The notes under the pieces are model-generated. The model ran no database searches. It was given only the letters and a program-made list of their open reading frames with translations, and was not told the origin of the DNA. A stretch of DNA of 64,000 nucleotides from Trueperaceae bacterium. GTDB taxonomy: Bacteria; Deinococcota; Deinococci; Deinococcales; Trueperaceae. Positions within the stretch are counted from its first letter, which is position 1. Every line of letters starts with the position of its first letter. Where the stretch lies: the NCBI GenBank assembly GCA_051649365.1, contig JBOFGY010000135.1, positions 9,842 through 73,841 of the forward strand, written 5' to 3'. This document shows, piece after piece, positions 4,802 to 37,568 of this stretch. The position numbers and the translations under genes were made by a program.

Positions 4802-4836
4802 AGGAGGAAGGAGGAAGGAGGAAGGAGGAAAGAGAA
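4802..4836. repeat. heptanucleotide array (AGGAGGA)x4 plus a degenerate unit
   Basis: AGGAGGA AGGAGGA AGGAGGA AGGAGGA AAGAGAA lies 20 nt upstream of the prs start codon. It would read as pyrimidine-rich CCTCCTT repeats in the prs 5' leader. Confidence 0.85.
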
Positions 4837-5395: not shown

Positions 5396-6073
5396 ATGCA
5401 ATGGCTAATTAACGGCGGACCCGTCATGATACCGATTGTCCTTATTTCGCTCTACGCGGTGTATGTGTTTTTCGACCGACTTTTTAAGCTCAACCGGGAG
5501 AAACTCGAGACCGACGCGCTCATGTTGCGTGTCAATGCTGCGGTGAAAGACCGTGACTTAGAATCTGCCCTTGCTGCCTGTGATACGCATGGTGGCCCTG
5601 TCGCGCGTGTTTTGAAAGCCGCCCTGCTCAAACTTCCCTATGGACGCGCTGCTGTGGAGGCTGCCTTTCAAGAAAGTTATCTTGTCGAAGAATCTGAATT
5701 GTCACGTGGTTTAAGACCGCTTCACACCATTGCCCAAATTGCGACGCTCCTTGGTTTGCTCGGTACGGTTACAGGGATGATTCAAGCCTTTAATGTTATT
5801 GCCCTGCAAGGAACCGGTGACCCTGGTGCGATGGCTGCAGGCATCAGTGAGGCCCTCATTACTACCGCGTCAGGGCTGAGTGTAGCGATTCCTGTTGTGA
5901 TAGGACAAAACTATTTGTCTAGCCGCGTCGATAAGATCTTGCTCGAGATTGAACGTCGCCGTGAAGAACTCATGTCCAATGTTGCCCAAGCTGTAGCGGG
6001 TAAACGTGACAGAAGTGATATAAGAACTCCAACCTCCGTAAGTCAAGGTGACTACGAAACGGTGCGAGGTTAA
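5396..6073 (+). CDS. MotA/TolQ/ExbB-family proton channel protein
   Basis: 225 aa with three TM segments and the family motif AQIATLLGLLGTVTGMIQAF...ISEALITTASGL. GGGAG Shine-Dalgarno lies 6 nt upstream. Confidence 0.85.
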   Translation: MQWLINGGPVMIPIVLISLYAVYVFFDRLFKLNREKLETDALMLRVNAAVKDRDLESALAACDTHGGPVARVLKAALLKLPYGRAAVEAAFQESYLVEESELSRGLRPLHTIAQIATLLGLLGTVTGMIQAFNVIALQGTGDPGAMAAGISEALITTASGLSVAIPVVIGQNYLSSRVDKILLEIERRREELMSNVAQAVAGKRDRSDIRTPTSVSQGDYETVRG

Positions 6074-6075
6074 CG

Positions 6076-6480
6076 ATGCGCTCGAGACGTAAACGCTTAG
6101 ACATGAGTGGCATCGGCATTGACCTTACGCCGATGGTAGATGTGGCGTTCACCCTTATTATGTTTTTTATGGTCTCCATGACCTTTATTACTTCGCAATC
6201 AGGTATGCCTGTAGATTTGCCCCAAGCGACAACGGCAGCGATTACGTCACCCGAAACACCAAGCGTAACGATTAACAGTCAGAATCAAGTTTTTTTAGGA
6301 AATACGCAAGTAGCAGTAGAAAACCTGGAAGCGCAACTCAAAGCAACCTTGCAACAAACAGGTTTTAGCGTCGTCGTGCTTCGTGCCGATAAAAACGTGT
6401 TGCACGGTCTTTCGGTACAAGTGATGGATATTATCAAAAGGGCAGGCGCGCAGAGGATTGCGATTGCCACAGGAAGCTAA
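6076..6480 (+). CDS. ExbD/TolR-family biopolymer transport protein
   Basis: 134 aa. IDLTPMVDVAFTLIMFFMV is the signature TM. Translationally close to the upstream ExbB-like gene (2-nt gap). Confidence 0.85.
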   Translation: MRSRRKRLDMSGIGIDLTPMVDVAFTLIMFFMVSMTFITSQSGMPVDLPQATTAAITSPETPSVTINSQNQVFLGNTQVAVENLEAQLKATLQQTGFSVVVLRADKNVLHGLSVQVMDIIKRAGAQRIAIATGS

Positions 6481-6646
6481 GGAAGAGCCTTTAACCGAGC
6501 GTATCATGCTGTTATGACTTGGTGAGCTAAGCGATTCGTCGATGACACCATCGGCTAAAGGCTCTTCCCCACATATATCGAACTAACTTCTCGCTAAGGT
6601 TTCATTCACAATAAAAAGAGACCTATGTAATTACAGAGACCCAGCC

Positions 6647-8827
6647 ATGACCAACGTGCCAGAGAACAACCTAAAGCAAGATATTAACAACAAAGATAAA
6701 CGCCGAGCGGCGATGTTATCCGTGTTTATACACGCTTTGTTGTTTTTGCTGTTAGCGTTGTACCGTTTGCCAGAGCCAAAGCCACTCGAGACCTACCTCG
6801 TGATTGATGTTGGCGTACCTGCCTTTTCAGAAACAGAAACGCTGGCACCTGCTGCCGATGCACCAGCACCGCTTGCTGCTGAACCTTTAGTAGCCTCAGA
6901 AACTGCTGGCACGCCCCAGGCACAAAGTGCGCCCGAGGCTCCGCCGGCTTCAGCCCCCGTTGCCGAGGCACCCGCCCCCACCGAAGCTGCACCAACGCCC
7001 GAGGTGGCACCCGCCCCCGAACCGCAGCCAGCGGCCCCTGCCCCTGAACCCCAACCTGCACCCGAACCTCAACCAGAGGTAATAGAACCCCAAGTTGCAG
7101 AAGCAGCTCCGCCTGTCTCAACCGAACTTCCTGAAACCCAAGAAACTACCGCAACCTTGCCAGAAATTGAGGCAGTAGAAACAACCCCCGAAGCTCAAGC
7201 GATTGCACTGCCAACTCCCACACCCCAAGTGGATGTTGCGCCAGCCGTTAATGTCACTACGCAGGCAAGTGTTGACATCGCACCAGAGCAACCCCTGCCT
7301 ACCCCAAACGCGCAAGCCAGTGTAGCTGAGTCTCAGACGATTCCACAGCCGCAGGTTGAAACAAGTGTTGCTGAGGCGATTGCTATTCCACAACCCCAAG
7401 CCGAAATGAGTGTGGCTGAAGCTGTCGCCATTCCACAACCGCAAAGTCAGGCAAGTGTGAGCGCAGCCCAAGCCATTCCGCAACCGCAGGCACAAAGCAG
7501 TGTGGCTGCGGCGCAGGCTATTCCTCAGCCCCAAGCAGCAGCTAATGTTGCAGAAGCTGAAGCGGTTCCTCTTCCCAATGCCCAAGCTACGGTTAGTGCC
7601 GCCCAAACGATTCCTTCACCAAATGCCAGCTCGAGTGTCAGTGCATCAGAATTTATTCCTGCCCCGAACGCTAAAGCAAGTGTGACACCTGCCCAAACAA
7701 TTCCTGCACCTCAAGCGCAAGTGAGTGTTGCCCCTGGCGCATCCAATGCAGACTCTGCATTGGACTCGAGTGCGGCCACCGCCGCTAGCGGTGAAGACGG
7801 AACTTCAGGCCCAACACTTCCCGGTGCAGCGCAGGCGAACACAAATGCACTGGGGCAGCCGTCACCGGAAGATGGGGGGAACTCGAGCACCTCAGGTCAA
7901 ACCACCGAAGACCCGAACGCTACTACCGAAGGTTTAGGCGCAGCTGCCAGTTCAGATGGTGAAGGTGAAGGCACGGGTGCGCCCTACGCCCAAGCTCCCT
8001 ACCGCGAAAACCGTGACCGCCCCCTCAACGTGATGATTGATAACACCTTTGGTTATCCGCAAGCAGGCTTGCAAGAAGCCTCGATGGTTGTCGAGATGCC
8101 CGTCGAAGGTGGTGCTACGCGCCTTATGACCACGTATGACCGCGTTGACCCCTCGAGGGTTGGCCCCGTGCGAAGTGCCAGAGACTACTTTCACACGTTA
8201 TCGAGCAATATGGATGGCGTACTCGTGCATGATGGTGGTTCGCCACAAGCGATGGCTGCCATTGAGCGTGGCAGCATACCTACACTTAACGCCTATAACA
8301 ATGGTGGTCTTTTCAAACGCGAAGGTGGCGAAGCTCCTTACAATTTGTTCTCGAGTGGCAGCTCGTTGCGTGAGGCCGTGGCGAAACTTAGGCTCAACCG
8401 CTCGAGACCCGTGAGTGGCACGATTTTCCGTCCCGAAGACACTGAGAGCGCAGCAACAACTATCAAGGTAAATTATTCGGGCGCGTATGACAGCGGCTTT
8501 CAGTACATCGAAGACTTAGACCAATATCGCTGGATACGCAACGGAGACGACGCGGTAGATTTTTCAGGTCAAGCTGTGTACGCCCAAGCTGTGCTCGTTG
8601 CAACGATTACGGCGAAGGAAATTCCTGATGATCCTGCGAGTAGGCTGTATATTCCGCTCGAGAGTAGCCGCGCCACACTTTATGTTCGTGGGAAAGCGAT
8701 TGCGGGAAATTGGTCACCCAATGGTGGCATTCAATTTGCGACAAGTCTCGGGGAACCCATTGATTTAACGCCATTCAAAACCTGGGTGCTGTTTACGCCA
8801 ACCTATGCTGAAGTAACGCAACAGTAA
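6647..8827 (+). CDS. TonB-like N-terminal anchor, Pro/Ala-rich repeat spacer and C-terminal DUF3048 domain
   Basis: The N-terminus KRRAAMLSVFIHALLFLLLAL resembles the TonB anchor. It is followed by a long APEPQP spacer and then 15-aa repeats. The C-terminus RPLNVMIDNTFGYPQAGLQEASMVVEMPVEGGATRLMTTYD...GPVRSARDYF matches my recollection of DUF3048 rather than a TonB C-terminal domain. Confidence 0.7.
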   Translation: MTNVPENNLKQDINNKDKRRAAMLSVFIHALLFLLLALYRLPEPKPLETYLVIDVGVPAFSETETLAPAADAPAPLAAEPLVASETAGTPQAQSAPEAPPASAPVAEAPAPTEAAPTPEVAPAPEPQPAAPAPEPQPAPEPQPEVIEPQVAEAAPPVSTELPETQETTATLPEIEAVETTPEAQAIALPTPTPQVDVAPAVNVTTQASVDIAPEQPLPTPNAQASVAESQTIPQPQVETSVAEAIAIPQPQAEMSVAEAVAIPQPQSQASVSAAQAIPQPQAQSSVAAAQAIPQPQAAANVAEAEAVPLPNAQATVSAAQTIPSPNASSSVSASEFIPAPNAKASVTPAQTIPAPQAQVSVAPGASNADSALDSSAATAASGEDGTSGPTLPGAAQANTNALGQPSPEDGGNSSTSGQTTEDPNATTEGLGAAASSDGEGEGTGAPYAQAPYRENRDRPLNVMIDNTFGYPQAGLQEASMVVEMPVEGGATRLMTTYDRVDPSRVGPVRSARDYFHTLSSNMDGVLVHDGGSPQAMAAIERGSIPTLNAYNNGGLFKREGGEAPYNLFSSGSSLREAVAKLRLNRSRPVSGTIFRPEDTESAATTIKVNYSGAYDSGFQYIEDLDQYRWIRNGDDAVDFSGQAVYAQAVLVATITAKEIPDDPASRLYIPLESSRATLYVRGKAIAGNWSPNGGIQFATSLGEPIDLTPFKTWVLFTPTYAEVTQQ
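7296..7740 (+). repeat. in-frame 45-nt (15-aa) degenerate tandem repeat, ~10 copies, inside the TonB-like gene
   Basis: Units include IPQPQVETSVAEAIA / IPQPQAEMSVAEAVA / IPQPQSQASVSAAQA / IPQPQAQSSVAAAQA / IPQPQAAANVAEAEA / VPLPNAQATVSAAQT / IPSPNASSSVSASEF / IPAPNAKASVTPAQT. Confidence 0.85.
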
Positions 8828-8871: not shown

Positions 8872-9108
8872 ATGATTTTACGAGCCAACCGCAGTCCTTT
8901 GACGATTAAAGAAGGCATTGCCGTTTTGACACACTATCCAGAATTTTTGCAAAACAATAATTGTTTCTCCTTGTTTGCTTCGCGCACCACAGACCAGCGT
9001 GTACATGCCTTGTGGATTAGCGAGAAGCAACCTAAACTTGGTTGGTGCTGGGATAGAAATCCGCATACCTGGTTGGGCTCGGTTTCGTGCGGAGCCCTAG
9101 TTAGTTAG
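8872..9108 (+). CDS. hypothetical protein (78 aa)
   Basis: ORF only. Trp/Cys-containing motif KLGWCWDRNPHTWLGS. Overlaps the convergent regulator gene by 4 nt. Family not recognised. Confidence 0.35.
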   Translation: MILRANRSPLTIKEGIAVLTHYPEFLQNNNCFSLFASRTTDQRVHALWISEKQPKLGWCWDRNPHTWLGSVSCGALVS

Positions 9109-10106
9109 ACAAGATTTCCCTTGGCAAGTTCTATTGCACGTTTTGCTAAGTCCTCAAAGGCTTTTTTCAAAGCAGTAGGCTCAAGCACTTTCACGGCGTA
9201 GGGAAGCTCGAGCAAATACACAACCACGCGCCAGAACCATTCTGGGTGTGCCATCACCGTGAGCATCACACCATCATCAACAGGCTCGAGCGTCGCTATA
9301 TAAGCGGGAATATATTTGCTGGCTTCTACTAAGTTTGTTTGCAACAGAACGCGGCAGGGAACACTGCCAGGAAACGGTGCTTGGGCAAGTGATTCACTAA
9401 TTGTTTTGAAGGCGTTAAAGTTTTTGGGTGGCTTGAAAGTCTCACCTGTAGTTTTTAATATCTCGAGCCTGTCTAGCCTAAATGTTCTTACATCTTTTCG
9501 CAAATGGCAATAGCCAGCGACATACCAATTGTTATTGAGATAAACGATGCCGTAAGGGTCTAGCTTTCGGTAGGTAAAACCGCTCTCGTGCGAACGATAG
9601 CGAACCTCGAGCCTTTCCTTATGCTGCACCGCTTGCGAGACATCGAGCATCGTGTGGCTTTCTACCTTGTCCAGCTTGAGTGGTTCAGATGTTTCGGTCT
9701 CGAGTGTTTGCAACACAGAATCTATGCGCTCACCAAGGCTTTCACTCAGGACGTGCTCGAGACGTTTAAACGCGCTCTCGGCAGCTTTGGCAAGTTTGGG
9801 TGTTTTCGTGCGTTGAGCTTGTTTTAAGCCTAACGCCAGGACGAGGGCTTCATCATCTGTAAAACGCAAGGCTGGTAAAAGCGAGCCCCGTCCTAATGTG
9901 ACTCCGCCGCCGCGCCCTGGCAGGGTTTCTACTTCAATCTCGAGGTCTTGGAGTCTTGCAAGGTCACGGCGGATGGTGCGTTCGCTTACACCAAAATGTT
10001 CTGCTAGAGCTTGTGTGGTGAGTTGCTTTTGTCCACGCAGTAAGTCAACCATTGCAAAAAGCCTGTCAGTGAGTCCATTCATTCTAAAAGGAATCATACT
10101 TGACAA
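9105..10106 (-). CDS. YafY-type transcriptional regulator (N-terminal HTH plus WYL domain)
   Basis: HTH region LTTQALAEHFGVSERTIRRDLARL. WYL region NWYVAGYCHLRKDVRTFRLDRL. The start may be the internal MNGLTDRLF (10082). Confidence 0.85.
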   Translation of the reverse strand: MSSMIPFRMNGLTDRLFAMVDLLRGQKQLTTQALAEHFGVSERTIRRDLARLQDLEIEVETLPGRGGGVTLGRGSLLPALRFTDDEALVLALGLKQAQRTKTPKLAKAAESAFKRLEHVLSESLGERIDSVLQTLETETSEPLKLDKVESHTMLDVSQAVQHKERLEVRYRSHESGFTYRKLDPYGIVYLNNNWYVAGYCHLRKDVRTFRLDRLEILKTTGETFKPPKNFNAFKTISESLAQAPFPGSVPCRVLLQTNLVEASKYIPAYIATLEPVDDGVMLTVMAHPEWFWRVVVYLLELPYAVKVLEPTALKKAFEDLAKRAIELAKGNLV

Positions 10107-20567: not shown

Positions 20568-22040
20568 ATGGCTCGTAAATCCGCACTTTCCTACGACAGA
20601 GGTACGCTTATTCTGCATCCACCACCGAAAGGGAAGGCGTGGTTAGATTTTGCGACCTGGGATGACCGCATTGAAAAATTTCGAGTGCCTGCTAGGGACT
20701 ATAGAAAGCTGCTCGAGACCTGCAAACTTGAAGGTATAGACATTGAAGATAGAGCGCGGAGTTTTCGGGAGCTCGAGCTAAAACCGCTCACCCAAGAACC
20801 GTTTAAGCACCAACAAGAAGCTTTAGAGAATTGGATTCGGGCCAAGCGGCAAGGCGTGGTTGTGTTACCAACGGGTGCAGGTAAAACGTTCGTTGCACAT
20901 ATGGCCATTGAAGCCACGCCGCGCAGTTCACTCATTGTCGTACCAACTCTCGATTTAATGCATCAGTGGTATGCGAATCTAAAAGCAGCGTTTCCAGAGG
21001 TTGAAGTGGGTTTACTTGGCGGTGGTTCAAAAGATGATTCACCCATTCTTGTTGCCACCTACGACAGTGCCGCCATTTACGCTGAGAAACTTGGCAATCA
21101 ATACGCCTTACAAATTTTTGATGAATGCCATCACTTACCTGGTGACTTTGTAAGAACGATTGCTGAGTATTCGATTGCGCCGTACCGTTTAGGGCTTACC
21201 GCAACGCCCGAACGTGGGGATAACAAGCACACCGATTTAGACATACTTATTGGCCCAGTTATTTACCGCAAAGCCCCCGAGGACTTAGCTGGTGGCGCAC
21301 TGTCAGAGCATAAAATTAAACAAATTAAAGTGACACTTTCTGCTGCTGAACGTGCCGAATACGATAAACTCATTGCCCAACGCAATGAGTTTTTGGCGAA
21401 AAGCAGAATTTCCCTTGGAACACTGGACGGCTGGCAGCGTTTCGTGCAAGCCAGTGGCAGGAGTAAAGAAGGCCGCGCCGCGATGCTCGCGCACCGCAAC
21501 GCACGGCAGATTGCCTTTGGCACGACAGCAAAAATGGAAACACTCGCGGGACTACTCGAGCAGCACCACGGAGACCGCTTGTTAGTTTTCACAGACGATA
21601 ACGCGATGGTTTACCGCATTTCGCAAACTTTTTTAGTGCCAGCGATTACGCACCAGAGCAAAGTCAAAGAACGCCACGAGATTTTACAAAAATTCCGTGA
21701 GGGTGATTATCCGAGAGTCGTGACCTCGAGGGTTCTCAATGAAGGGGTAGATGTGCCTGAAGCCAATGTTGCGGTGATTTTGTCAGGCACGGGCACGACG
21801 AGAGAATACGTGCAGCGTCTAGGCCGCATTTTGCGACGTGGTGAAGGCAAACTCGCGCTGCTTTACGAAGTGATTGCAGAGAATACCGCAGAAGAAAATG
21901 TGTCAAAGCGGCGACGAGGAGAGTATAAAAAGACAGAAGAGGGGACAAGGGAAAGAGGAGAAGAGGAGAAGGAGAAAAGGCAGCAAAGATTATTTGACCG
22001 AATTAATAGTGAAGAAAGTTTGGGGTTTGATGATTTGTAA
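20568..22040 (+). CDS. xpb: XPB/Rad25-type SF2 DNA helicase
   Basis: N-terminal LSYDRGTLIL damage-recognition-like domain. Motif I is LPTGAGKT and motif II is DECHH. C-terminal helicase lobe TSRVLNEGVDVPEANV, then a charged tail. Confidence 0.8.
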   Translation: MARKSALSYDRGTLILHPPPKGKAWLDFATWDDRIEKFRVPARDYRKLLETCKLEGIDIEDRARSFRELELKPLTQEPFKHQQEALENWIRAKRQGVVVLPTGAGKTFVAHMAIEATPRSSLIVVPTLDLMHQWYANLKAAFPEVEVGLLGGGSKDDSPILVATYDSAAIYAEKLGNQYALQIFDECHHLPGDFVRTIAEYSIAPYRLGLTATPERGDNKHTDLDILIGPVIYRKAPEDLAGGALSEHKIKQIKVTLSAAERAEYDKLIAQRNEFLAKSRISLGTLDGWQRFVQASGRSKEGRAAMLAHRNARQIAFGTTAKMETLAGLLEQHHGDRLLVFTDDNAMVYRISQTFLVPAITHQSKVKERHEILQKFREGDYPRVVTSRVLNEGVDVPEANVAVILSGTGTTREYVQRLGRILRRGEGKLALLYEVIAENTAEENVSKRRRGEYKKTEEGTRERGEEEKEKRQQRLFDRINSEESLGFDDL

Positions 22041-24631: not shown

Positions 24632-25846
24632 ATGTTGCCATCAGACTTATTAATGTACCGCTATAACGGTGAAGAAGTTTTACCTAAACGCCTCGAGCTA
24701 AGCGACAAGCAACTCAGTTTGGCTAAGGAAATTATCACGTTATTTCAAGATTCCAAAGGCAAGCGCAGAGGAGAGCTCGACGAACAACTTGCCATTCTCG
24801 AGGGTGAAGCCACTGATTACCGTGTGAAGCGTGGGCTTGCACACCTGCTCGAGTCTGCCTTTAGCACCTTTGAAACCGTGAGCCCGCTCGAGCCTGCCAT
24901 GTTGCGCCAGAGACTCTTTGCCTTATCCGCAAAGCATAAACCCTCTGTAGCAACTACCGAAAGTTTGGTTTCGGGTATGGCAGCTGTTCTCAGCGATGAA
25001 CTTAAACGTGAAGTGAACATAGACGAGGTAAAAACAGGGCTTTACGCAGACCTCAAAGAAAACGCCATCATGACGGAGTTTGAAACGCCTGATCCTGAAG
25101 CATTGCTACACCGATTTAATTTGTCGCAAGTGCAAGGTATTCTGTACCGCGCTCAGGATTTAGTCATCACGGCGCACCGCAATGTGCCAGGCGAATATAA
25201 ACTCTTATTTCGCTACTTAAAACTGTTTGGCCTCATGGCCTACATCGAAGGTGACGCAGACCACGGCTTTACGATTACTATTGATGGCCCCGCGAGCCTT
25301 TTTGGTGCCAGTACGCGCTACGGCACGGACATTGCCAAGTTTTTGCCCGCACTCTTACACGTCAGCAAATGGAGTCTTGCTGCCAATCTTATTCCGAGTC
25401 AGCGTTTCGATAACACGCCAAGCTCCGCACGGTTCACGCTCGATTCAGATTGCGGTCTTGTTTCGCACTACAAAAAAGGCAAAATCTACGACAGTATGCT
25501 CGAGCAAGCTTTTGCCGAACGTTGGCAGAGTACCAAGACCGAGTGGCAGCTCGAGCGCGAAGTAAATTTATTGCCCATTCCAGGCAGCGTGATGGTGCCA
25601 GACTTTAGACTCGTTCATCCTGACGGCAGAGATTTTCTCTTAGAAATTGTAGGTTATTGGCGACCTGAGTATCTCCGAAAAAAGTTTTCACAGGTGGCCA
25701 AATCTGGCGTGAACAATTTGATTCTCGCCATTTCTGAACGCTTGAACCTTGGTGAGGCTGGGGTGAAAATAGAAAAAGTTATGGCGAAAGTCGTGTGGTT
25801 TAAGGAGAAGATTATTCCGAAAGATGTATTAGCGGTAATGGAGTGA
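24632..25846 (+). CDS. bax1: DUF790-family (Bax1-like) endonuclease, the usual XPB partner
   Basis: 404 aa. The N-terminal LPSDLLMYRY...EVLPKRL and the C-terminal nuclease-like region PDFRLVHPDGRDFLLEIVGYW fit my recollection of DUF790/Bax1. Confidence 0.65.
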   Translation: MLPSDLLMYRYNGEEVLPKRLELSDKQLSLAKEIITLFQDSKGKRRGELDEQLAILEGEATDYRVKRGLAHLLESAFSTFETVSPLEPAMLRQRLFALSAKHKPSVATTESLVSGMAAVLSDELKREVNIDEVKTGLYADLKENAIMTEFETPDPEALLHRFNLSQVQGILYRAQDLVITAHRNVPGEYKLLFRYLKLFGLMAYIEGDADHGFTITIDGPASLFGASTRYGTDIAKFLPALLHVSKWSLAANLIPSQRFDNTPSSARFTLDSDCGLVSHYKKGKIYDSMLEQAFAERWQSTKTEWQLEREVNLLPIPGSVMVPDFRLVHPDGRDFLLEIVGYWRPEYLRKKFSQVAKSGVNNLILAISERLNLGEAGVKIEKVMAKVVWFKEKIIPKDVLAVME

Positions 25847-32836: not shown

Positions 32837-33199
32837 AATTGGTTACTCCTTAGGATAAACCCTGTAAAGTTAATAAATAACCATAAGGTCTAGCAAGCCG
32901 TTAGAGCATAGCACAAGCCATGCTGCTTTCTCAATGGGCAAAAAACAGGGCCACAGACTAGGGCTGAAGGGAGAATACGCAAGGGTTTTAGCTTTCGTCA
33001 CTATTTTTTGGCGAAATTCCAGATGTCGTTCCCGCTCCCCTTCTCATGATTGTGTGAAGTGCCTTACATCTGAGCTATGCTAGGTAATCTGTGAGAATTG
33101 CCAGTGGATACTTAAAAACTATCCGCTATGATAGGTGGCCAGGAGACGTGTACAGCTTTTTCGTTACTCGCTCTTACCTTGCCGTCAAAGGAGTTCATT

Positions 33200-35491
33200 G
33201 TGAATAGGGGTAAGCAATCTAAAGGCATTGCACTGATCAGTGTGCTGTTTATCGCGGCAGTGGTGCTTATTTTAGCCTCGACATTTGTTTTTGTTATTAC
33301 AAGAGAGCGTCAATCTACCAACTCCGCTCGAGTTATTAGTGATTCTGTGCAAATTGCGGACGCAATTAGCGAGCGTGCGCGTATTGAACTTGTCAAAATA
33401 TTCAAAGATAGCTATGTTACAGCCGATGTTTTTATGGCGGAGCTTGATAAAGCTATAACGAAGTCAGGCAGCACTAAAATTCCTGCGCTCAACGCCCTTA
33501 AAAATCCGTCACCACTTATTACAATTGAAGAAGGTCGCACAGGACGTTGGCAGATTAAAGCCAATGATTATTCTACGCCTGTTAATGGTGAAAACTCTAC
33601 TTCGGGGGAACTTACAAAATTAGCCTGGATTGATGTTTCAGCAACCGCCACAACCTCAACAGGCACCCAAACGGTGATTCGCCGTATCAATATGGGTGAG
33701 GGCGATTTGTTTGAATTGGCGATGCTGGCTCGAGACACCAACTGTATCTATTGCCATTTGCGGGTTAATGGGGATGTAGGTTCTTTAGGAAATCTGCGTC
33801 CAGGCTGGGGTACGGATTTGGGGGGTGAGCGTCCACCAGAAGGCTGGGAAGAGGGGTGGGGTTCAGGTGGCTCAGGAGGTGGTTCTGTTGTCAACGGTGA
33901 TACCTATGTCGCCAACGGAGCTGAAGCTTCTCGTGATGCCAGCGAAAACTTAGACGAAGAAGCAGTTAGAGAAGATAAAGATGTAGATAAGAAAATTAAC
34001 GGTGCTATTTTCAATGGTTCAGTTGAGGAAAACTATGTGGGTAGACCACTGCCTAGGGATATAGATGGTGATAATGTTGCAGATTTCCCAGCTATTAACC
34101 GTGATGTTGCCCGTAATAGTGCTGGGGGAAGCATTAGTAGTGCTGCGCTTATCTATACAGTTGACTCTGATGAAAACTTAACGAGTGCGCCGACGAGTAG
34201 TAACCAAACGTCTTTACCAAGCAATATAGAAGGAAACGTGGTGCTCGAGGGCACGAAAGAAAATCCCATTATTCTCGACGGAGATATTTTTGTTGAAGGT
34301 GATGTTGTTATCAAGGGTTATGTCCAAGGACGCGGAGCTATCTACTCAGGACGCAATGTTTACGTCGCCGGTAATATTGAGTATGTAGATGATGTTTCTA
34401 CCTGTGTGGGTGAAACAAACCCAGACCAGTGTGCCCGCGACATTATTGCGCAAGGTGGTTCTGAACTGCGTCTTGCCTCACGTAACAATACTGTTTTGGG
34501 TGATTACACAGAGACAACAGTAGATGACAGTGGTACTACAGTAGATAAAGATTGGCAAGGACTACAGGCTTCCGATTACTTCCGTTCACAATTTGAGTTT
34601 AATGACCCTAATGAAAATAAATATTTTGATACCGAAACAGGGGATGAGCTTAGCTATGATCCCATCAACGAAGGTTACAAAAATGTTGACGGTGAGATTG
34701 TTGAAGACGGAAATGTTAAGGCTATTGCGTCCATCGATGCCTATCAATACAGCTTTCAACCGGGTCGTGTCACAGAAAATGGTGGATTTGATAGCTGGAT
34801 GAGTGATGACGTTTACCAAGACATTTTGGGTACAGAAACACGCAAATACGATACCTGGCGTTATAACATTCCAGATCCTACAGCTCTGACGCTTGAAGAG
34901 TTACAAAAGCAGTTTGCTAAATATGACCTCAGTGACGAAACGCTCAACTTACTGCTTTGTGAAGCGAATTGTACGACGCAGCGCATAGATCTCAAAAATG
35001 CAGAGGGAACAGTTATCGGTCAGGTTCACATAGAAGATATTGAAGATTCTGCTGCTATAAATTTGCGTGTCATTGTTGATACAGCTTTGAGTTATGAAAA
35101 ACAAACGACTAAAGTAGATGCTTTTATCTACTCGAATCAACGTATTGCAGGTAAAACCTTTAATGCACCCTTGTCTATTAATGGCGGCATGATTGGGCAA
35201 GAGATTGGTATCTTGGCCCCAGGCATTGAGAGGCAGTGGTGGATGAATAACCGCTACGCAGATATATTAGATGGAGACTGCACGAGCGCGGCCTTTGCTA
35301 AAACGTTTAGTACCGAAGAAAACGGGGAAAACTCTCACGCCTACAACGAAGATAGTGTAGACTGCGCGCTCACCGTGAACTATGACTACCGCTTGCGAAA
35401 CGGTGGCCTAGGTTTTAACCTTGTCGTGCAAGAGGTGGGTCAAACACTTAGCTGGCAGCTTGCAGATGAGAAAGCAGATCAGGTGCAGTAA
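33200..35491 (+). CDS. large PilX-N-type pilus-associated protein (putative tip/adhesin or ComZ-like component)
   Basis: GTG 33200 is preceded by AGGAG. The N-terminus KGIALISVLFIAAVVLILASTFVFVITRE resembles the PilX N-terminal domain. The central GNVVLEGT..ILDGDIFVEGDVVIKGYVQGRGAIYSGRNVYVAGNIEY looks beta-solenoid-like. It is first in the pseudopilin operon. Confidence 0.6.
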   Translation: MNRGKQSKGIALISVLFIAAVVLILASTFVFVITRERQSTNSARVISDSVQIADAISERARIELVKIFKDSYVTADVFMAELDKAITKSGSTKIPALNALKNPSPLITIEEGRTGRWQIKANDYSTPVNGENSTSGELTKLAWIDVSATATTSTGTQTVIRRINMGEGDLFELAMLARDTNCIYCHLRVNGDVGSLGNLRPGWGTDLGGERPPEGWEEGWGSGGSGGGSVVNGDTYVANGAEASRDASENLDEEAVREDKDVDKKINGAIFNGSVEENYVGRPLPRDIDGDNVADFPAINRDVARNSAGGSISSAALIYTVDSDENLTSAPTSSNQTSLPSNIEGNVVLEGTKENPIILDGDIFVEGDVVIKGYVQGRGAIYSGRNVYVAGNIEYVDDVSTCVGETNPDQCARDIIAQGGSELRLASRNNTVLGDYTETTVDDSGTTVDKDWQGLQASDYFRSQFEFNDPNENKYFDTETGDELSYDPINEGYKNVDGEIVEDGNVKAIASIDAYQYSFQPGRVTENGGFDSWMSDDVYQDILGTETRKYDTWRYNIPDPTALTLEELQKQFAKYDLSDETLNLLLCEANCTTQRIDLKNAEGTVIGQVHIEDIEDSAAINLRVIVDTALSYEKQTTKVDAFIYSNQRIAGKTFNAPLSINGGMIGQEIGILAPGIERQWWMNNRYADILDGDCTSAAFAKTFSTEENGENSHAYNEDSVDCALTVNYDYRLRNGGLGFNLVVQEVGQTLSWQLADEKADQVQ

Positions 35492-35892
35492 TGTCTAAAG
35501 CTTTGCGGTTACCTATTATTCTTGTTGCCCTCATGCTGATGTTTGGCATTATCTCTTGGCTTCGCCCTAGAGCTACAGTCGAACCACCTGTTCGCTCGAG
35601 TACGGTCGAGGTCGAAAGCTTTGAGCCTGAAAAAGCTAATGACTTGGTAAGAATTAATGGTTTGAGCGAAACAGGCTACGCTGCCCAAGTGCAAGAACAA
35701 AGTAAAACCACGCCACTCGCGTTACAAAAACCTGATGTCTGGACGCCTGCCTATATTCGCTCCATAGAATCACAAGGGAACAAAACCATCATCGTGTTTG
35801 TGGATGACAGCACGAGAGAGGTTACGCCCACACTTTATCAACAGTTACCGAGTGCCCTGAAAGACAGAATGGACTATGAACGTGGACGATAA
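35491..35892 (+). CDS. hypothetical membrane-anchored protein in the pilin operon
   Basis: 133 aa with a single N-terminal TM (LPIILVALMLMFGIISWL). Start overlaps the upstream stop (ATGA-type coupling). Confidence 0.5.
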   Translation: MSKALRLPIILVALMLMFGIISWLRPRATVEPPVRSSTVEVESFEPEKANDLVRINGLSETGYAAQVQEQSKTTPLALQKPDVWTPAYIRSIESQGNKTIIVFVDDSTREVTPTLYQQLPSALKDRMDYERGR

Positions 35893-35893
35893 T

Positions 35894-36307
35894 ATGGTGC
35901 GTTTCCAAAAAGGATTTTCACTACTCGAGATGCTCTTGGTTTTAGCAATCTTGAGTATTCTCCTAACGATTTCGGGATTTTTGTTAAACAGCTATTTGCA
36001 ACAACAACGCCTCAATGAAGCGACACGCACCTTAGGTGAGACGTTGCGCCGTATTGGTGAATTAGCTACGACAGAGAGTCAACGCTACGAAGTTACTTTT
36101 ACAGAAAACTCAATGACCTGGGAAAACGAAGATAATGTTGAAACTACTCAGACCTTACCTTATAACGTTGTGTTGACCCTGCCCATGCCTGACCTAGAGT
36201 TTTCGGGTCGAGGCTTACCTCAGACTGGACAAACCTTTACTCTGACACTAAATGAAAGAGTGCGAACCGTTTATCTCGCCGCCACAGGAGCCGTGATGTA
36301 TCCATGA
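35894..36307 (+). CDS. type IV pilus minor pilin / pseudopilin (GspH/FimT-like)
   Basis: Prepilin leader MVRFQKG|FSLLEMLLVLAILSILL with Glu at +5. Confidence 0.8.
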   Translation: MVRFQKGFSLLEMLLVLAILSILLTISGFLLNSYLQQQRLNEATRTLGETLRRIGELATTESQRYEVTFTENSMTWENEDNVETTQTLPYNVVLTLPMPDLEFSGRGLPQTGQTFTLTLNERVRTVYLAATGAVMYP

Positions 36308-36762
36308 ACCTTACCGCTCGCACCTCCAACCCTACTAAAGGTCTTACACTCGTCGAAATTGTCGTAGCGATAGGTGTTTTTTCTATTGTCATGTTGGCTT
36401 TAAGCGGCATGATTGTGTCTGGTTTACAACTCAGACGGAAAAATAATGTTGATGCTCAGGCGAGTGTGTACGCCGCGTCTATTCTCGAGCTTTACAAAAA
36501 TCATTATTCGACCAGCGCAAATTTTGATAAAGGTACCTCCCCAGTCATTCCAGAACCTCCTGGGGCGGTGAAACAAGTTGTGGCCAGAATTGACACGACC
36601 ATAACCTGCATTGATGTAGAAGGTGAAGTTATTGCGGGTGCAGATACAAGTGATGCAGATAAAGATCCGTGTGAATTAAGACGAGTAGGTGTAACGGTTT
36701 TGGATTTAGAGGATAAGCCTCGAGCCAATTTCGTTACTGAAGTAGGAAAGCCCTTACAATGA
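36304..36762 (+). CDS. type IV pilus minor pilin (PilV-like)
   Basis: Leader ...NPTKG|LTLVEIVVAIGVFSIVMLAL. 4-nt overlap with the upstream gene. Confidence 0.75.
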   Translation: MNLTARTSNPTKGLTLVEIVVAIGVFSIVMLALSGMIVSGLQLRRKNNVDAQASVYAASILELYKNHYSTSANFDKGTSPVIPEPPGAVKQVVARIDTTITCIDVEGEVIAGADTSDADKDPCELRRVGVTVLDLEDKPRANFVTEVGKPLQ

Positions 36763-37568
36763 CCTCCTCTTCTAATCTCCAAAAGCGTACCTTAGGTATT
36801 AGCCTTATAGAACTGTTAATCTCGATGGGAATTTTGGGTATTCTTCTGGCGACACTCACCGCTTTTTTAGTCAGCAACCAACAAGTCACAACCTCACAAG
36901 TGACGAGTGCGACCCTTAGTAATGATGTGCGTTTGGCGCATTTGCGACTTGGTGAAATTGTCTCACAAGCCCATTACATTTATCCAAGCGGGCAAACCAT
37001 TAACATTGACGGTACACCCTATGTGACAGGAGCTTTGGCCTTGGCTGTGCTCGTGCCAAGGGGTACAACTTATTGTAAACGTGAGCCCGAAGAAACAGAT
37101 ACTCGTCAAGATTATTGTGGTTTTGCGTATGTTGTTACAGAGCGCACTCCTTATGTAGATTTGCTGGGTGAAAGTGACGGCACAACAGGCCAGGTGCTGA
37201 TTGAATTTAAGAGTGAAGGATTAGAATGGGTGCAAGCGGATAGCACAGCAGGTGACACCAACCCTGCACTCACGCTACTCAACTGGAATAATCTTAGCTC
37301 GACGAATCCAGTTGCAGATTCTGTAGATGAAGAACTTACCAATGTCGGTGCAGAACTTACCTTCTCGAGTATCGTAGCTACCTTTGATAAAGAGACGAAC
37401 TTTCAGCTTACGGGCTCTAGTGACACTGTGAGGGCACTGATTGGCGGCGTTACCTCTACAATTGCTCTCGAGCGCACCGTGCGTGGTAAAGAAGTTACCG
37501 CGAGCCGAGAGAACTATGTTTTTTCAAAGGCTATTCCTAGAACGGGTTTACCCAACCAACCTAGATAA
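36759..37568 (+). CDS. type IV pilus minor pilin (PilW-like)
   Basis: Leader ...QKRTLG|ISLIELLISMGILGILLATL. 4-nt overlap with the upstream gene. Confidence 0.7.
   Translation: MTSSSNLQKRTLGISLIELLISMGILGILLATLTAFLVSNQQVTTSQVTSATLSNDVRLAHLRLGEIVSQAHYIYPSGQTINIDGTPYVTGALALAVLVPRGTTYCKREPEETDTRQDYCGFAYVVTERTPYVDLLGESDGTTGQVLIEFKSEGLEWVQADSTAGDTNPALTLLNWNNLSSTNPVADSVDEELTNVGAELTFSSIVATFDKETNFQLTGSSDTVRALIGGVTSTIALERTVRGKEVTASRENYVFSKAIPRTGLPNQPR

Follow-up and report, generated by a model that had tools for sequence, protein, structure and literature searches.

Textbooks describe two routes, Ton and Tol, by which energy from the inner membrane is delivered to the outer envelope, and in both an ExbB/TolQ-type motor acts on a transducer (TonB or TolA). 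Can such a motor also work on a transducer with an altogether different C-terminal domain? This question is raised by a locus of a Trueperaceae bacterium (assembly GCA_051649365.1, contig JBOFGY010000135.1, positions 9,842-73,841 of the forward strand; this whole 64,000-nt stretch is hereafter the window, and coordinates are positions within it). At 5396-8827, three open reading frames (ORFs) lie on the same strand: an exbB gene, an exbD gene, and a third gene, here called gene 3. An initial reading of the sequence (the original prediction) had proposed that gene 3 encodes a TonB-like anchor fused, via a very long spacer, to the uncharacterised domain DUF3048 in the place of a TonB C-terminal domain, and that the three genes form an operon for a proton motive force (pmf) transducer. 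Having followed up this proposal by comparative and structural analyses, we consider it probable (roughly 0.65) that the three genes specify a single Ton/Tol-type machine, in which a pmf-energised transducer carries a DUF3048 head whose target would be a component of the cell wall.

The predicted head of the gene 3 protein

Pfam assigns both halves of the DUF3048 family to the C-terminal region of the gene 3 protein, with scores well above their cut-offs (PF11258 DUF3048, 112 bits against 25; PF17479 DUF3048_C, 41.5 bits against 25), and residues 455-719 align to Bacillus subtilis YerB (PDB 2psb, E 2e-25). No match to TonB_C (PF03544 / TIGR01352) or TolA was found in the protein with Pfam or NCBIfam at E<=0.01, and no match to a von Willebrand A (vWA) domain with Pfam. 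Structural prediction agrees with this assignment. The full-length AlphaFold2 (AF2) model, built from an alignment of 32 relatives, contains a confident globular head at aa 450-725, and the head modelled alone attains a predicted local distance difference test (pLDDT) score of 87.9 and a predicted template modelling score of 0.88. When this model was compared to the PDB with Foldseek, YerB 2psb was recovered with a TM-score of 0.80 (E 1.6e-22, 27% identity), the next match had an E of 0.3, and no TonB or TolA chain was present among the 50 matches listed. As modelled, the head is a YerB fold, distinct from the C-terminal domains of TonB and TolA, so that the domain assignment of the original prediction is upheld both by profile and by structure comparison.

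Three motifs (EGGxTR, VGPxRSARxY and HxGGSP) are invariant across DUF3048 proteins of many phyla and are present in the window protein, and one Gly and one Trp of the second domain are likewise invariant across phyla. The persistence of these polar residues over such distances suggests, at the level of sequence, that DUF3048 possesses a conserved binding or catalytic site.

The anchor, the candidate motor box and the spacer

The segment originally singled out as a TonB-style anchor, RRAAMLSVFIHALLFLLLAL, corresponds to aa 19-38 of the gene 3 protein and lies within a helix modelled at high confidence (pLDDT ~94), which is preceded by a basic cluster, KDKRR. In 32/32 full-length relatives (40-71% identity) R19, R20, A21, S25 and H29 are invariant, and in the window protein Leu36 occupies the Leu position of the SHLS motif, the core of which is Ser-x3-His and which docks TonB/TolA on ExbB/TolQ (PMC12204202; PMC12215075). 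Behind the helix, the same relatives share a motif of the form E-x-[YF]-L-V-I-D-V-G-x-P (aa 48-58; V52 and G56 invariant, P58 in at least 90%), which stands at the position of the 'motor box' of TonB/TolA, a beta-strand in the disordered region directly after the helix (PMC12204202).

An exhaustive search of 1.84 billion representative proteins with a profile of this anchor found 49 proteins. The ten weakest full-length matches were checked and 10/10 carry DUF3048, while the matches beyond the DUF3048 family consist of one 133-aa fragment and one low-complexity protein. Judged by its sequence, the anchor is TonB/TolA-like in its defining features and private to the DUF3048 family.

Between anchor and head, the AF2 model is without secondary structure and has a pLDDT <50 (aa 46-415), and Pro and Ala each account for 22% of residues in aa 41-215, the first part of the linker to be analysed. 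The spacer of the window protein measures ~400 aa, and that of its relatives 273-614 aa (median 376). The ten 15-aa repeats reported in the original prediction were recovered as a consecutive series, the first being LPTPNAQASVAESQT and the last IPAPQAQVSVAPGAS. In the DNA, no more than 2.3 copies of a 45-nt unit can still be made out, and thus the repeats are old and do not reflect recent slippage. A spacer of this length would suit the thick, multilayered envelope of Deinococcota.

The ExbB-ExbD motor

The first two genes are indeed an ExbB-ExbD pair, each matching its Pfam family strongly (Table 1; 102.9 bits against a cut-off of 22.9 for ExbB with PF01618). The best PDB match of ExbB is TolQ (4e-11), followed by ExbB (4e-8), and NCBIfam scores it at 83 bits for TolQ and 61 bits for ExbB; the best PDB match of ExbD is ExbD (3e-12), followed by TolR (2e-5). 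None of the NCBIfam Tol/Ton equivalogs reaches its cut-off, all scores being far below, and consequently the pair is not assignable to either Tol or Ton.

Residues associated with motor function are largely retained. Asp22 of ExbD aligns with the essential Asp25 of Escherichia coli ExbD. We aligned 52 Trueperaceae-type and 4 Atribacterota ExbBs to E. coli TolQ and ExbB (reference sequences whose residue numbers match PMC12215075 and whose C-terminal halves agree with a separate analysis). The two pore Thr residues and the Ser of transmembrane helix 1 (TM1) are invariant in 52/52 Trueperaceae-type and 4/4 Atribacterota sequences, and the Pro of TM3 is kept in 51/52 and 4/4, respectively. In the window ExbB the TM1 Ser is Ser18, the equivalent of S34 in ExbB and S28 in TolQ, and the TM2 Thr and the TM3 Glu, Thr and Pro are conserved. 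In cryo-EM structures, this TM1 Ser of ExbB contacts Ser16/His20 of TonB (PMC12215075). On the strength of these residues the motor looks competent.

A Zorya-type anti-phage motor was also considered for the pair and rejected. For such a system a ZorA of ~600-700 aa, ZorB and effectors would be expected, and the ExbB found here has 225 aa; PADLOC returned only a weak family-level ZorA match for ExbB (E 1.2e-4), and none for ExbD or gene 3.

Conservation of the three-gene module

Close relatives of gene 3 for which a source is named all derive from metagenome-assembled genomes of Trueperaceae or Deinococcales, so that the window can be taken as part of the chromosome of a Trueperaceae-like member of Deinococcota, a lineage that possesses an outer membrane. 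Three relatives of ~40% identity lie in three different flanking contexts, yet in each exbB-exbD stands directly upstream. We extended this comparison to one genome per GTDB species, covering 49 Trueperaceae/Deinococcota loci and 31 DUF3048 loci from other phyla, thereby carrying out the survey of DUF3048 genes beside exbBD to which the original prediction pointed. An exbB-exbD pair lies directly upstream in 47 of the 49 Trueperaceae/Deinococcota loci, and the other two end at a contig edge. Outside Deinococcota, exbBD is absent from 30 of the 31 loci and present only in one from Atribacteria. The distance between the exbD stop and the start of gene 3 has a median of 8 nt over 54 loci, a set that includes those of the three ~40%-identity relatives and the Atribacteria locus. 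Given this degree of linkage under changing flanks, the short median gap and the recurrence in a second phylum, chance adjacency is unlikely.

Around motor-less DUF3048 genes (Bacillaceae, Patescibacteria, Clostridia) we found housekeeping genes and no consistent partner. In one Clostridia contig (L091, 3093-6101) such a gene follows ireB, an aldo-keto reductase gene, ruvX and a DUF1292 gene. Many Firmicutes carry mltG at this position, which would be a weak hint of a tie to peptidoglycan metabolism.

The module in Atribacterota

In the Atribacteria genome the gene order is TPR-exbB-exbD-DUF3048, with a tetratricopeptide repeat (TPR) protein of 1195 aa and a DUF3048 protein of 479 aa. This order was present in 4/4 Atribacterota loci inspected, including one complete Caldatribacterium genome, and the large TPR protein before the motor has YfiO/BamD-like matches; lgt and mreB are close by in some Atribacterota loci. 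A search with the Atribacteria DUF3048 protein returned at least 120 clusters of 480-497 aa with the same architecture, and all of those with a named taxon belong to Atribacterota.

In the anchors of these proteins, Ser-x3-Asn is invariant and the helix is followed by a motif, xxLVxLxEIP. When the anchor profiles of the two phyla were aligned with hhalign they fell into register, Ser on Ser, His on Asn and post-helix motif on post-helix motif (probability 82.5%, E 9.8e-6). In E. coli TonB, Asn in place of His20 is tolerated and activity is kept. Trueperaceae-type and Atribacterota proteins share 41% identity in ExbB and 36-42% in ExbD over nearly their full lengths, whereas the spacers differ markedly, being 149-171 aa long and rich in Glu, Lys and Pro in Atribacterota as opposed to 273-614 aa and rich in Ala and Pro in Deinococcota. 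In a neighbour-joining (NJ) tree of DUF3048 domains, the two motor-linked clades are each solid (50/50 and 49/50 bootstraps) and are grouped together in 0/50. The distances are saturated (~1.7), and consequently one old origin and two independent fusions are both possible.

The complete genome of Ca. Caldatribacterium saccharofermentans (CP187957.1) contains two exbB-exbD pairs (L086, 254-1307 and 4946-5999) that are 100% identical and lie on either side of the 1210-aa TPR gene that is upstream of the DUF3048 gene; this reflects a recent duplication or, alternatively, an artefact of assembly. Being identical, they are uninformative on the orthology of the module.

A proposed mechanism and its alternatives

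In the established model of Ton and Tol systems, a 5:2 ExbB/ExbD (TolQ/TolR) complex turns proton flow into movement, the helix of the transducer rests at the pentamer's rim, its juxtamembrane strand binds the periplasmic domain of ExbD/TolR, and its head holds a distal partner, which receives the force (PMC12215075, PMC12204202). Transferred to the Trueperaceae module, ExbB, probably as a pentamer, and ExbD, probably as a dimer, would make up a proton-driven motor of the cytoplasmic membrane, and the gene 3 protein would dock at the ExbB rim via Ser25 and His29 of its N-terminal helix. The periplasmic part of ExbD is probably bound by the conserved candidate strand that follows this helix, and the disordered, Pro/Ala-rich spacer of some 400 residues would carry the DUF3048 head of the protein far into a thick, Deinococcota-type envelope. 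By pulling or repositioning the head while this holds its partner, the motor may couple the pmf to an event beyond the cytoplasmic membrane. Motor residues, a Ser-x3-His helix, a conserved candidate strand, a long spacer and tight genetic linkage are all present and the head alone is different, which is why we infer, from comparative evidence, that the gene 3 protein is coupled to the motor as a pmf transducer with a DUF3048 head. The original view of an envelope domain that replaces the TonB C-terminal domain on such a transducer is therefore supported throughout by our in-silico tests, on the identity of the head, the invariance of the anchor and synteny. As for the partner of the head, DUF3048 is membrane-tethered in single-membrane bacteria and has an invariant polar site, which makes a wall component likelier than an outer-membrane barrel. 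A conserved cell-wall component (peptidoglycan or an attached polymer), and not a TonB-box outer-membrane barrel, is thus the most likely partner, although this is the weakest step of our reading.

Several observations weigh against this reading. The cell-wall target is argued from distribution alone, Foldseek searches of the PDB matched the head to YerB only and to no fold with a known function, and although a crystal structure of YerB has been available since 2007, the literature assigns no function to DUF3048/YerB. A 2026 survey of the lipoproteome lists YerB among proteins of unknown function. With respect to the anchor, the fourth position of the SHLS motif is R40 rather than Ser (the Leu and Ser of this motif are poorly conserved among TonBs; PMC12215075), and the post-helix motif does not form a strand when AF2 models the single chain. 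A PDB search with the single sequence of the N-terminal 88 aa found no match. With the anchor profile, the top three PDB matches are all E. coli TolA, aligned in register (KRAIIISAVLHVILF), but at a non-significant E of ~0.5, and the exhaustive profile search reached neither canonical TonB nor TolA, nor the same anchor on another head. On the side of the motor, the TM1 Trp four residues past the Ser (W38 in ExbB, W32 in TolQ) is replaced by Val, Leu or Ile in all DUF3048-linked ExbBs of both phyla, the window ExbB having Val at this position (TM1, 5447-5461). In E. coli this Trp packs on the His of TonB/TolA, and hence the docking geometry cannot be identical; the docking site for the transducer on ExbB appears to be in part conserved and in part remodelled. 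The predicted operon stands insofar as the three genes share one strand and are closely spaced in relatives, yet in the window exbD and gene 3 are separated by 166 nt that include a strong hairpin, unlike in most of those relatives. Finally, some relatives do without a motor. In two proteins (P0139, at L092 6001-7512, and P0143) a DUF3048 head of the same subfamily (48% identity) is joined to a signal peptide and a PEGA domain, which stand where the anchor and spacer would be, and there is no exbBD neighbour. As these PEGA-type relatives nest within the Trueperaceae clade of the NJ tree, the head can evidently work without a motor.

It could be argued from some of these points that there is no coupling at all, gene 3 encoding a tethered YerB-like protein while exbBD serve a partner encoded elsewhere. 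The lack of significant similarity between the anchor and TonB/TolA, the loss from ExbB of the Trp in contact with the His of TonB, the prevalence of motor-less DUF3048 proteins elsewhere and the hairpin-bearing gap in the window would all be accommodated by this explanation. Yet we regard it as very improbable, given that the linkage persists in 47/49 loci with changing flanks and a median gap of 8 nt and recurs in a second phylum; moreover, nothing about an ordinary signal anchor would require Ser-x3-His/Asn, the RR cluster and the post-helix motif to be invariant, which counts against a plain tether. If coupling is accepted, gene 3 might instead be the working TonB of its lineage, with the DUF3048 head engaging outer-membrane transporters to energise nutrient uptake. 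In its favour, Ton systems have the same kind of anchor, spacer and linkage to exbBD, the second gene product is nearer ExbD than TolR, and the source name of one Atribacterota member begins 'outer membrane biosynthesi...', which we take to be an old product name of TonB. Against this, and as the original prediction had remarked, no TonB-dependent receptor is encoded nearby: neither Plug nor TonB_dep_Rec has a match in the 64-kb window (all ORFs of at least 550 aa and most of at least 150 aa were scanned), and neither is named among the called genes in the Pfam tables of nine related loci. Considering also that the head is structurally unlike TonB_C/TolA_C, that bacteria lacking an outer membrane have this head too, and that the spacer is 4-8 times that of TonB, we find this explanation improbable.

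A further alternative, unlikely but deserving of more serious consideration, is that the module is a counterpart of Tol-Pal, the motor and the DUF3048 head coordinating the wall and the outer layers (e.g. during division) in diderms that are devoid of Pal. The gene order matches tolQ-tolR-tolA, ExbB is closest to TolQ, the anchor profile has TolA as its top (non-significant) PDB match, and lgt and mreB occur near some of the Atribacterota loci, where the YfiO/BamD-like TPR protein before the motor recalls CpoB of the tol-pal cluster. In addition, Pal is restricted to Gracilicutes, and the outer membrane of Deinococcus-Thermus is tethered via OmpM/SlpA (PMC10628300). On the other hand, the Trueperaceae loci have no linked gene resembling those for TolB, Pal or CpoB. 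This alternative overlaps with our preferred reading of a pmf transducer with a wall-directed DUF3048 head, and differs from it only in the biological role assigned. A bolder evolutionary extension would regard ExbBD-DUF3048 as an old, pmf-powered Tol-Pal counterpart that joins the cytoplasmic membrane to wall and outer layers in diderm Terrabacteria and allied lineages (Deinococcota, Atribacterota), and the YerB-type lipoproteins of Firmicutes, Actinobacteria, Chloroflexi and Patescibacteria as motor-less descendants that arose after loss of the outer membrane; we offer this as speculation that is quite probably wrong.

Features and surroundings of the locus

The positions of the three genes and of the features discussed above are collected in Table 1.

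Table 1 Coordinates of the exbB-exbD-gene 3 module and its features in the 64,000-nt window
Feature	Position	Strand	Details
exbB/tolQ-like gene	5396..6073	+	225 aa; PF01618 MotA_ExbB, E 1.3e-29
exbD/tolR-like gene	6076..6480	+	134 aa; PF02472 ExbD, E 2.6e-30
Hairpin in the exbD-gene 3 spacer	6481..6568	+	13-nt perfect arms GGAAGAGCCTTTA / TAAAGGCTCTTCC; RNA fold
Gene 3, transducer-like protein	6647..8827	+	726 aa; anchor, spacer and DUF3048 head
N-terminal transmembrane helix of gene 3	6692..6766	+	aa 16-40; AF2; Ser25-x3-His29
Juxtamembrane motif LETYLVIDVGVP, candidate 'motor box' strand	6785..6820	+	aa 47-58; conservation
Disordered Pro/Ala/Glu/Gln-rich spacer	6821..8005	+	aa 59-453; AF2 pLDDT, composition
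Ten tandem 15-aa repeats, [IVL]PxPx[AS]xxSVxxAxx	7295..7744	+	aa 217-366
DUF3048 N-terminal domain	8006..8389	+	aa 454-581; PF11258, E 3.6e-32
DUF3048 C-terminal beta-rich domain	8462..8788	+	aa 606-714; PF17479, E 2e-10

The hairpin between exbD and gene 3 begins directly 3' of the exbD stop and has a predicted stability of -39.6 kcal/mol (z -5.7; 0/200 shuffles as stable). No T-run follows it, and it occurs a single time within the window. It could be a lineage-specific element of mRNA processing, stability or attenuation. An Rfam scan of the window detected one tRNA and nothing else, and a scan for promoters and terminators yielded nothing that exceeds shuffled expectation.

According to Pfam, the neighbours of the module are housekeeping genes, with pth, L25/Ctc and prs upstream on the opposite strand; downstream are genes for a WYL regulator and an epoxide hydrolase. 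Between prs (minus strand) and the region upstream of exbB, positions 4803-4835 hold a short tandem repeat of purines, (GGAGGAA)n. The WYL/helix-turn-helix regulator that adjoins the module downstream (9105-10106, minus strand) matches CRISPR-associated WYL models in PADLOC (E 2e-51), and no defence genes were seen adjoining it. Further away, at 33128-37568 on the plus strand, a 787-aa ORF with a pilin-like N-terminal hydrophobic segment and no Pfam match precedes four small ORFs, and an N-terminal methylation motif is present in the final one; together these look like a cluster of type IV minor pilins (PilX/PilW-like). The window also encodes an XPB-type helicase (20568-22040, plus strand) and a DUF790 protein (24632-25846, plus strand), with a PAS-GGDEF-EAL gene on the opposite strand between them. 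DUF790 is presumably the family of Bax1, a nuclease partner of XPB.

Comparison with known systems

When compared to ExbB-ExbD-TonB of E. coli, the module is alike in its single N-terminal Ser-x3-His helix, the conserved segment after this helix, the proline-rich, non-globular spacer, the genetic linkage to exbB-exbD and the motor residues (the Asp of ExbD, and the Thr/Thr/Pro and TM1 Ser of ExbB). It is unlike TonB in its two-domain DUF3048/YerB head of ~270 aa (~90 aa for TonB_C), its spacer of ~400 aa (~70-100 aa in TonB), the absence of a nearby TonB-dependent transporter gene, the aliphatic residue at the TM1 Trp of ExbB and the missing final Ser of SHLS. Our literature search on Ton systems in Truepera, Deinococcus and Atribacter found nothing specific.

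With TolA of the Tol-Pal system, the gene 3 protein has in common the gene order, a long middle region (domain II in TolA), the Ser-x3-His anchor and an ExbB that is nearest to TolQ, and for this order, the affinity to TolQ and the non-significant TolA match in the PDB, 'TolA-like' is as accurate a description of the protein as 'TonB-like'. However, TolA domain III is absent, as are tolB, pal and cpoB neighbours in Trueperaceae. The distributions differ too, Pal being reportedly confined to Gracilicutes (PMC10628300) and the DUF3048 module in Deinococcota and Atribacterota.

B. subtilis YerB (2psb) resembles the gene 3 protein in the two-domain fold, in the motifs EGGxTR, GPxRSARxY and HxGGSP, and in being extracytoplasmic and tethered by a linker to the cytoplasmic membrane. 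Gene 3 nonetheless deviates from the usual form of DUF3048 proteins outside Deinococcota and Atribacterota, which are 340-430 aa long, have a lipobox or a plain signal anchor and a short linker, and lack exbBD neighbours. The module provides a first functional lead for a domain that many Firmicutes, Actinobacteria, Chloroflexi and Patescibacteria possess. Were it true that a motor pulls DUF3048 in some lineages, the domain would very likely serve to bind or remodel a conserved component of the envelope.

The closest precedent is to be found in the TolA/TonB-like transducers with a vWA head described by Williams-Jones et al. (Mol Biol Evol 2025; PMC12204202), which carry the SHLS His and a motor box, are encoded beside TPR-tolQ-tolR, and led these authors to predict further such systems. 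DUF3048, YerB and Deinococcota are absent from that paper, and a search of its supplements for Deinococcus, Truepera, Thermus and Atribacter found nothing. Both types combine an SHLS-His helix, a motor box (in our case a candidate), a disordered linker and a globular head other than that of TonB with tolQ/tolR-like neighbours, and in the PVC group the vWA type often has an upstream TPR gene, as do the Atribacterota DUF3048 loci. They differ in the fold of the head (von Willebrand A as opposed to YerB), in the spacer, which is ~100 aa in the vWA type, and in distribution, the vWA type having been reported from Proteobacteria, PVC, Bacteroidetes and Rhodothermaeota and the DUF3048 module occurring in two phyla outside this range. 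The exchange of Ser-x3-His for Ser-x3-Asn in the anchor and of Trp for an aliphatic residue in ExbB offers natural variants for studies of recognition between motor and transducer. The concept of a transducer with a foreign head is already known from the vWA type (PMC12204202), to which DUF3048 adds a further head, and the module would add another transducer system, in deep-branching, Pal-less diderm lineages of poorly known envelope biology.

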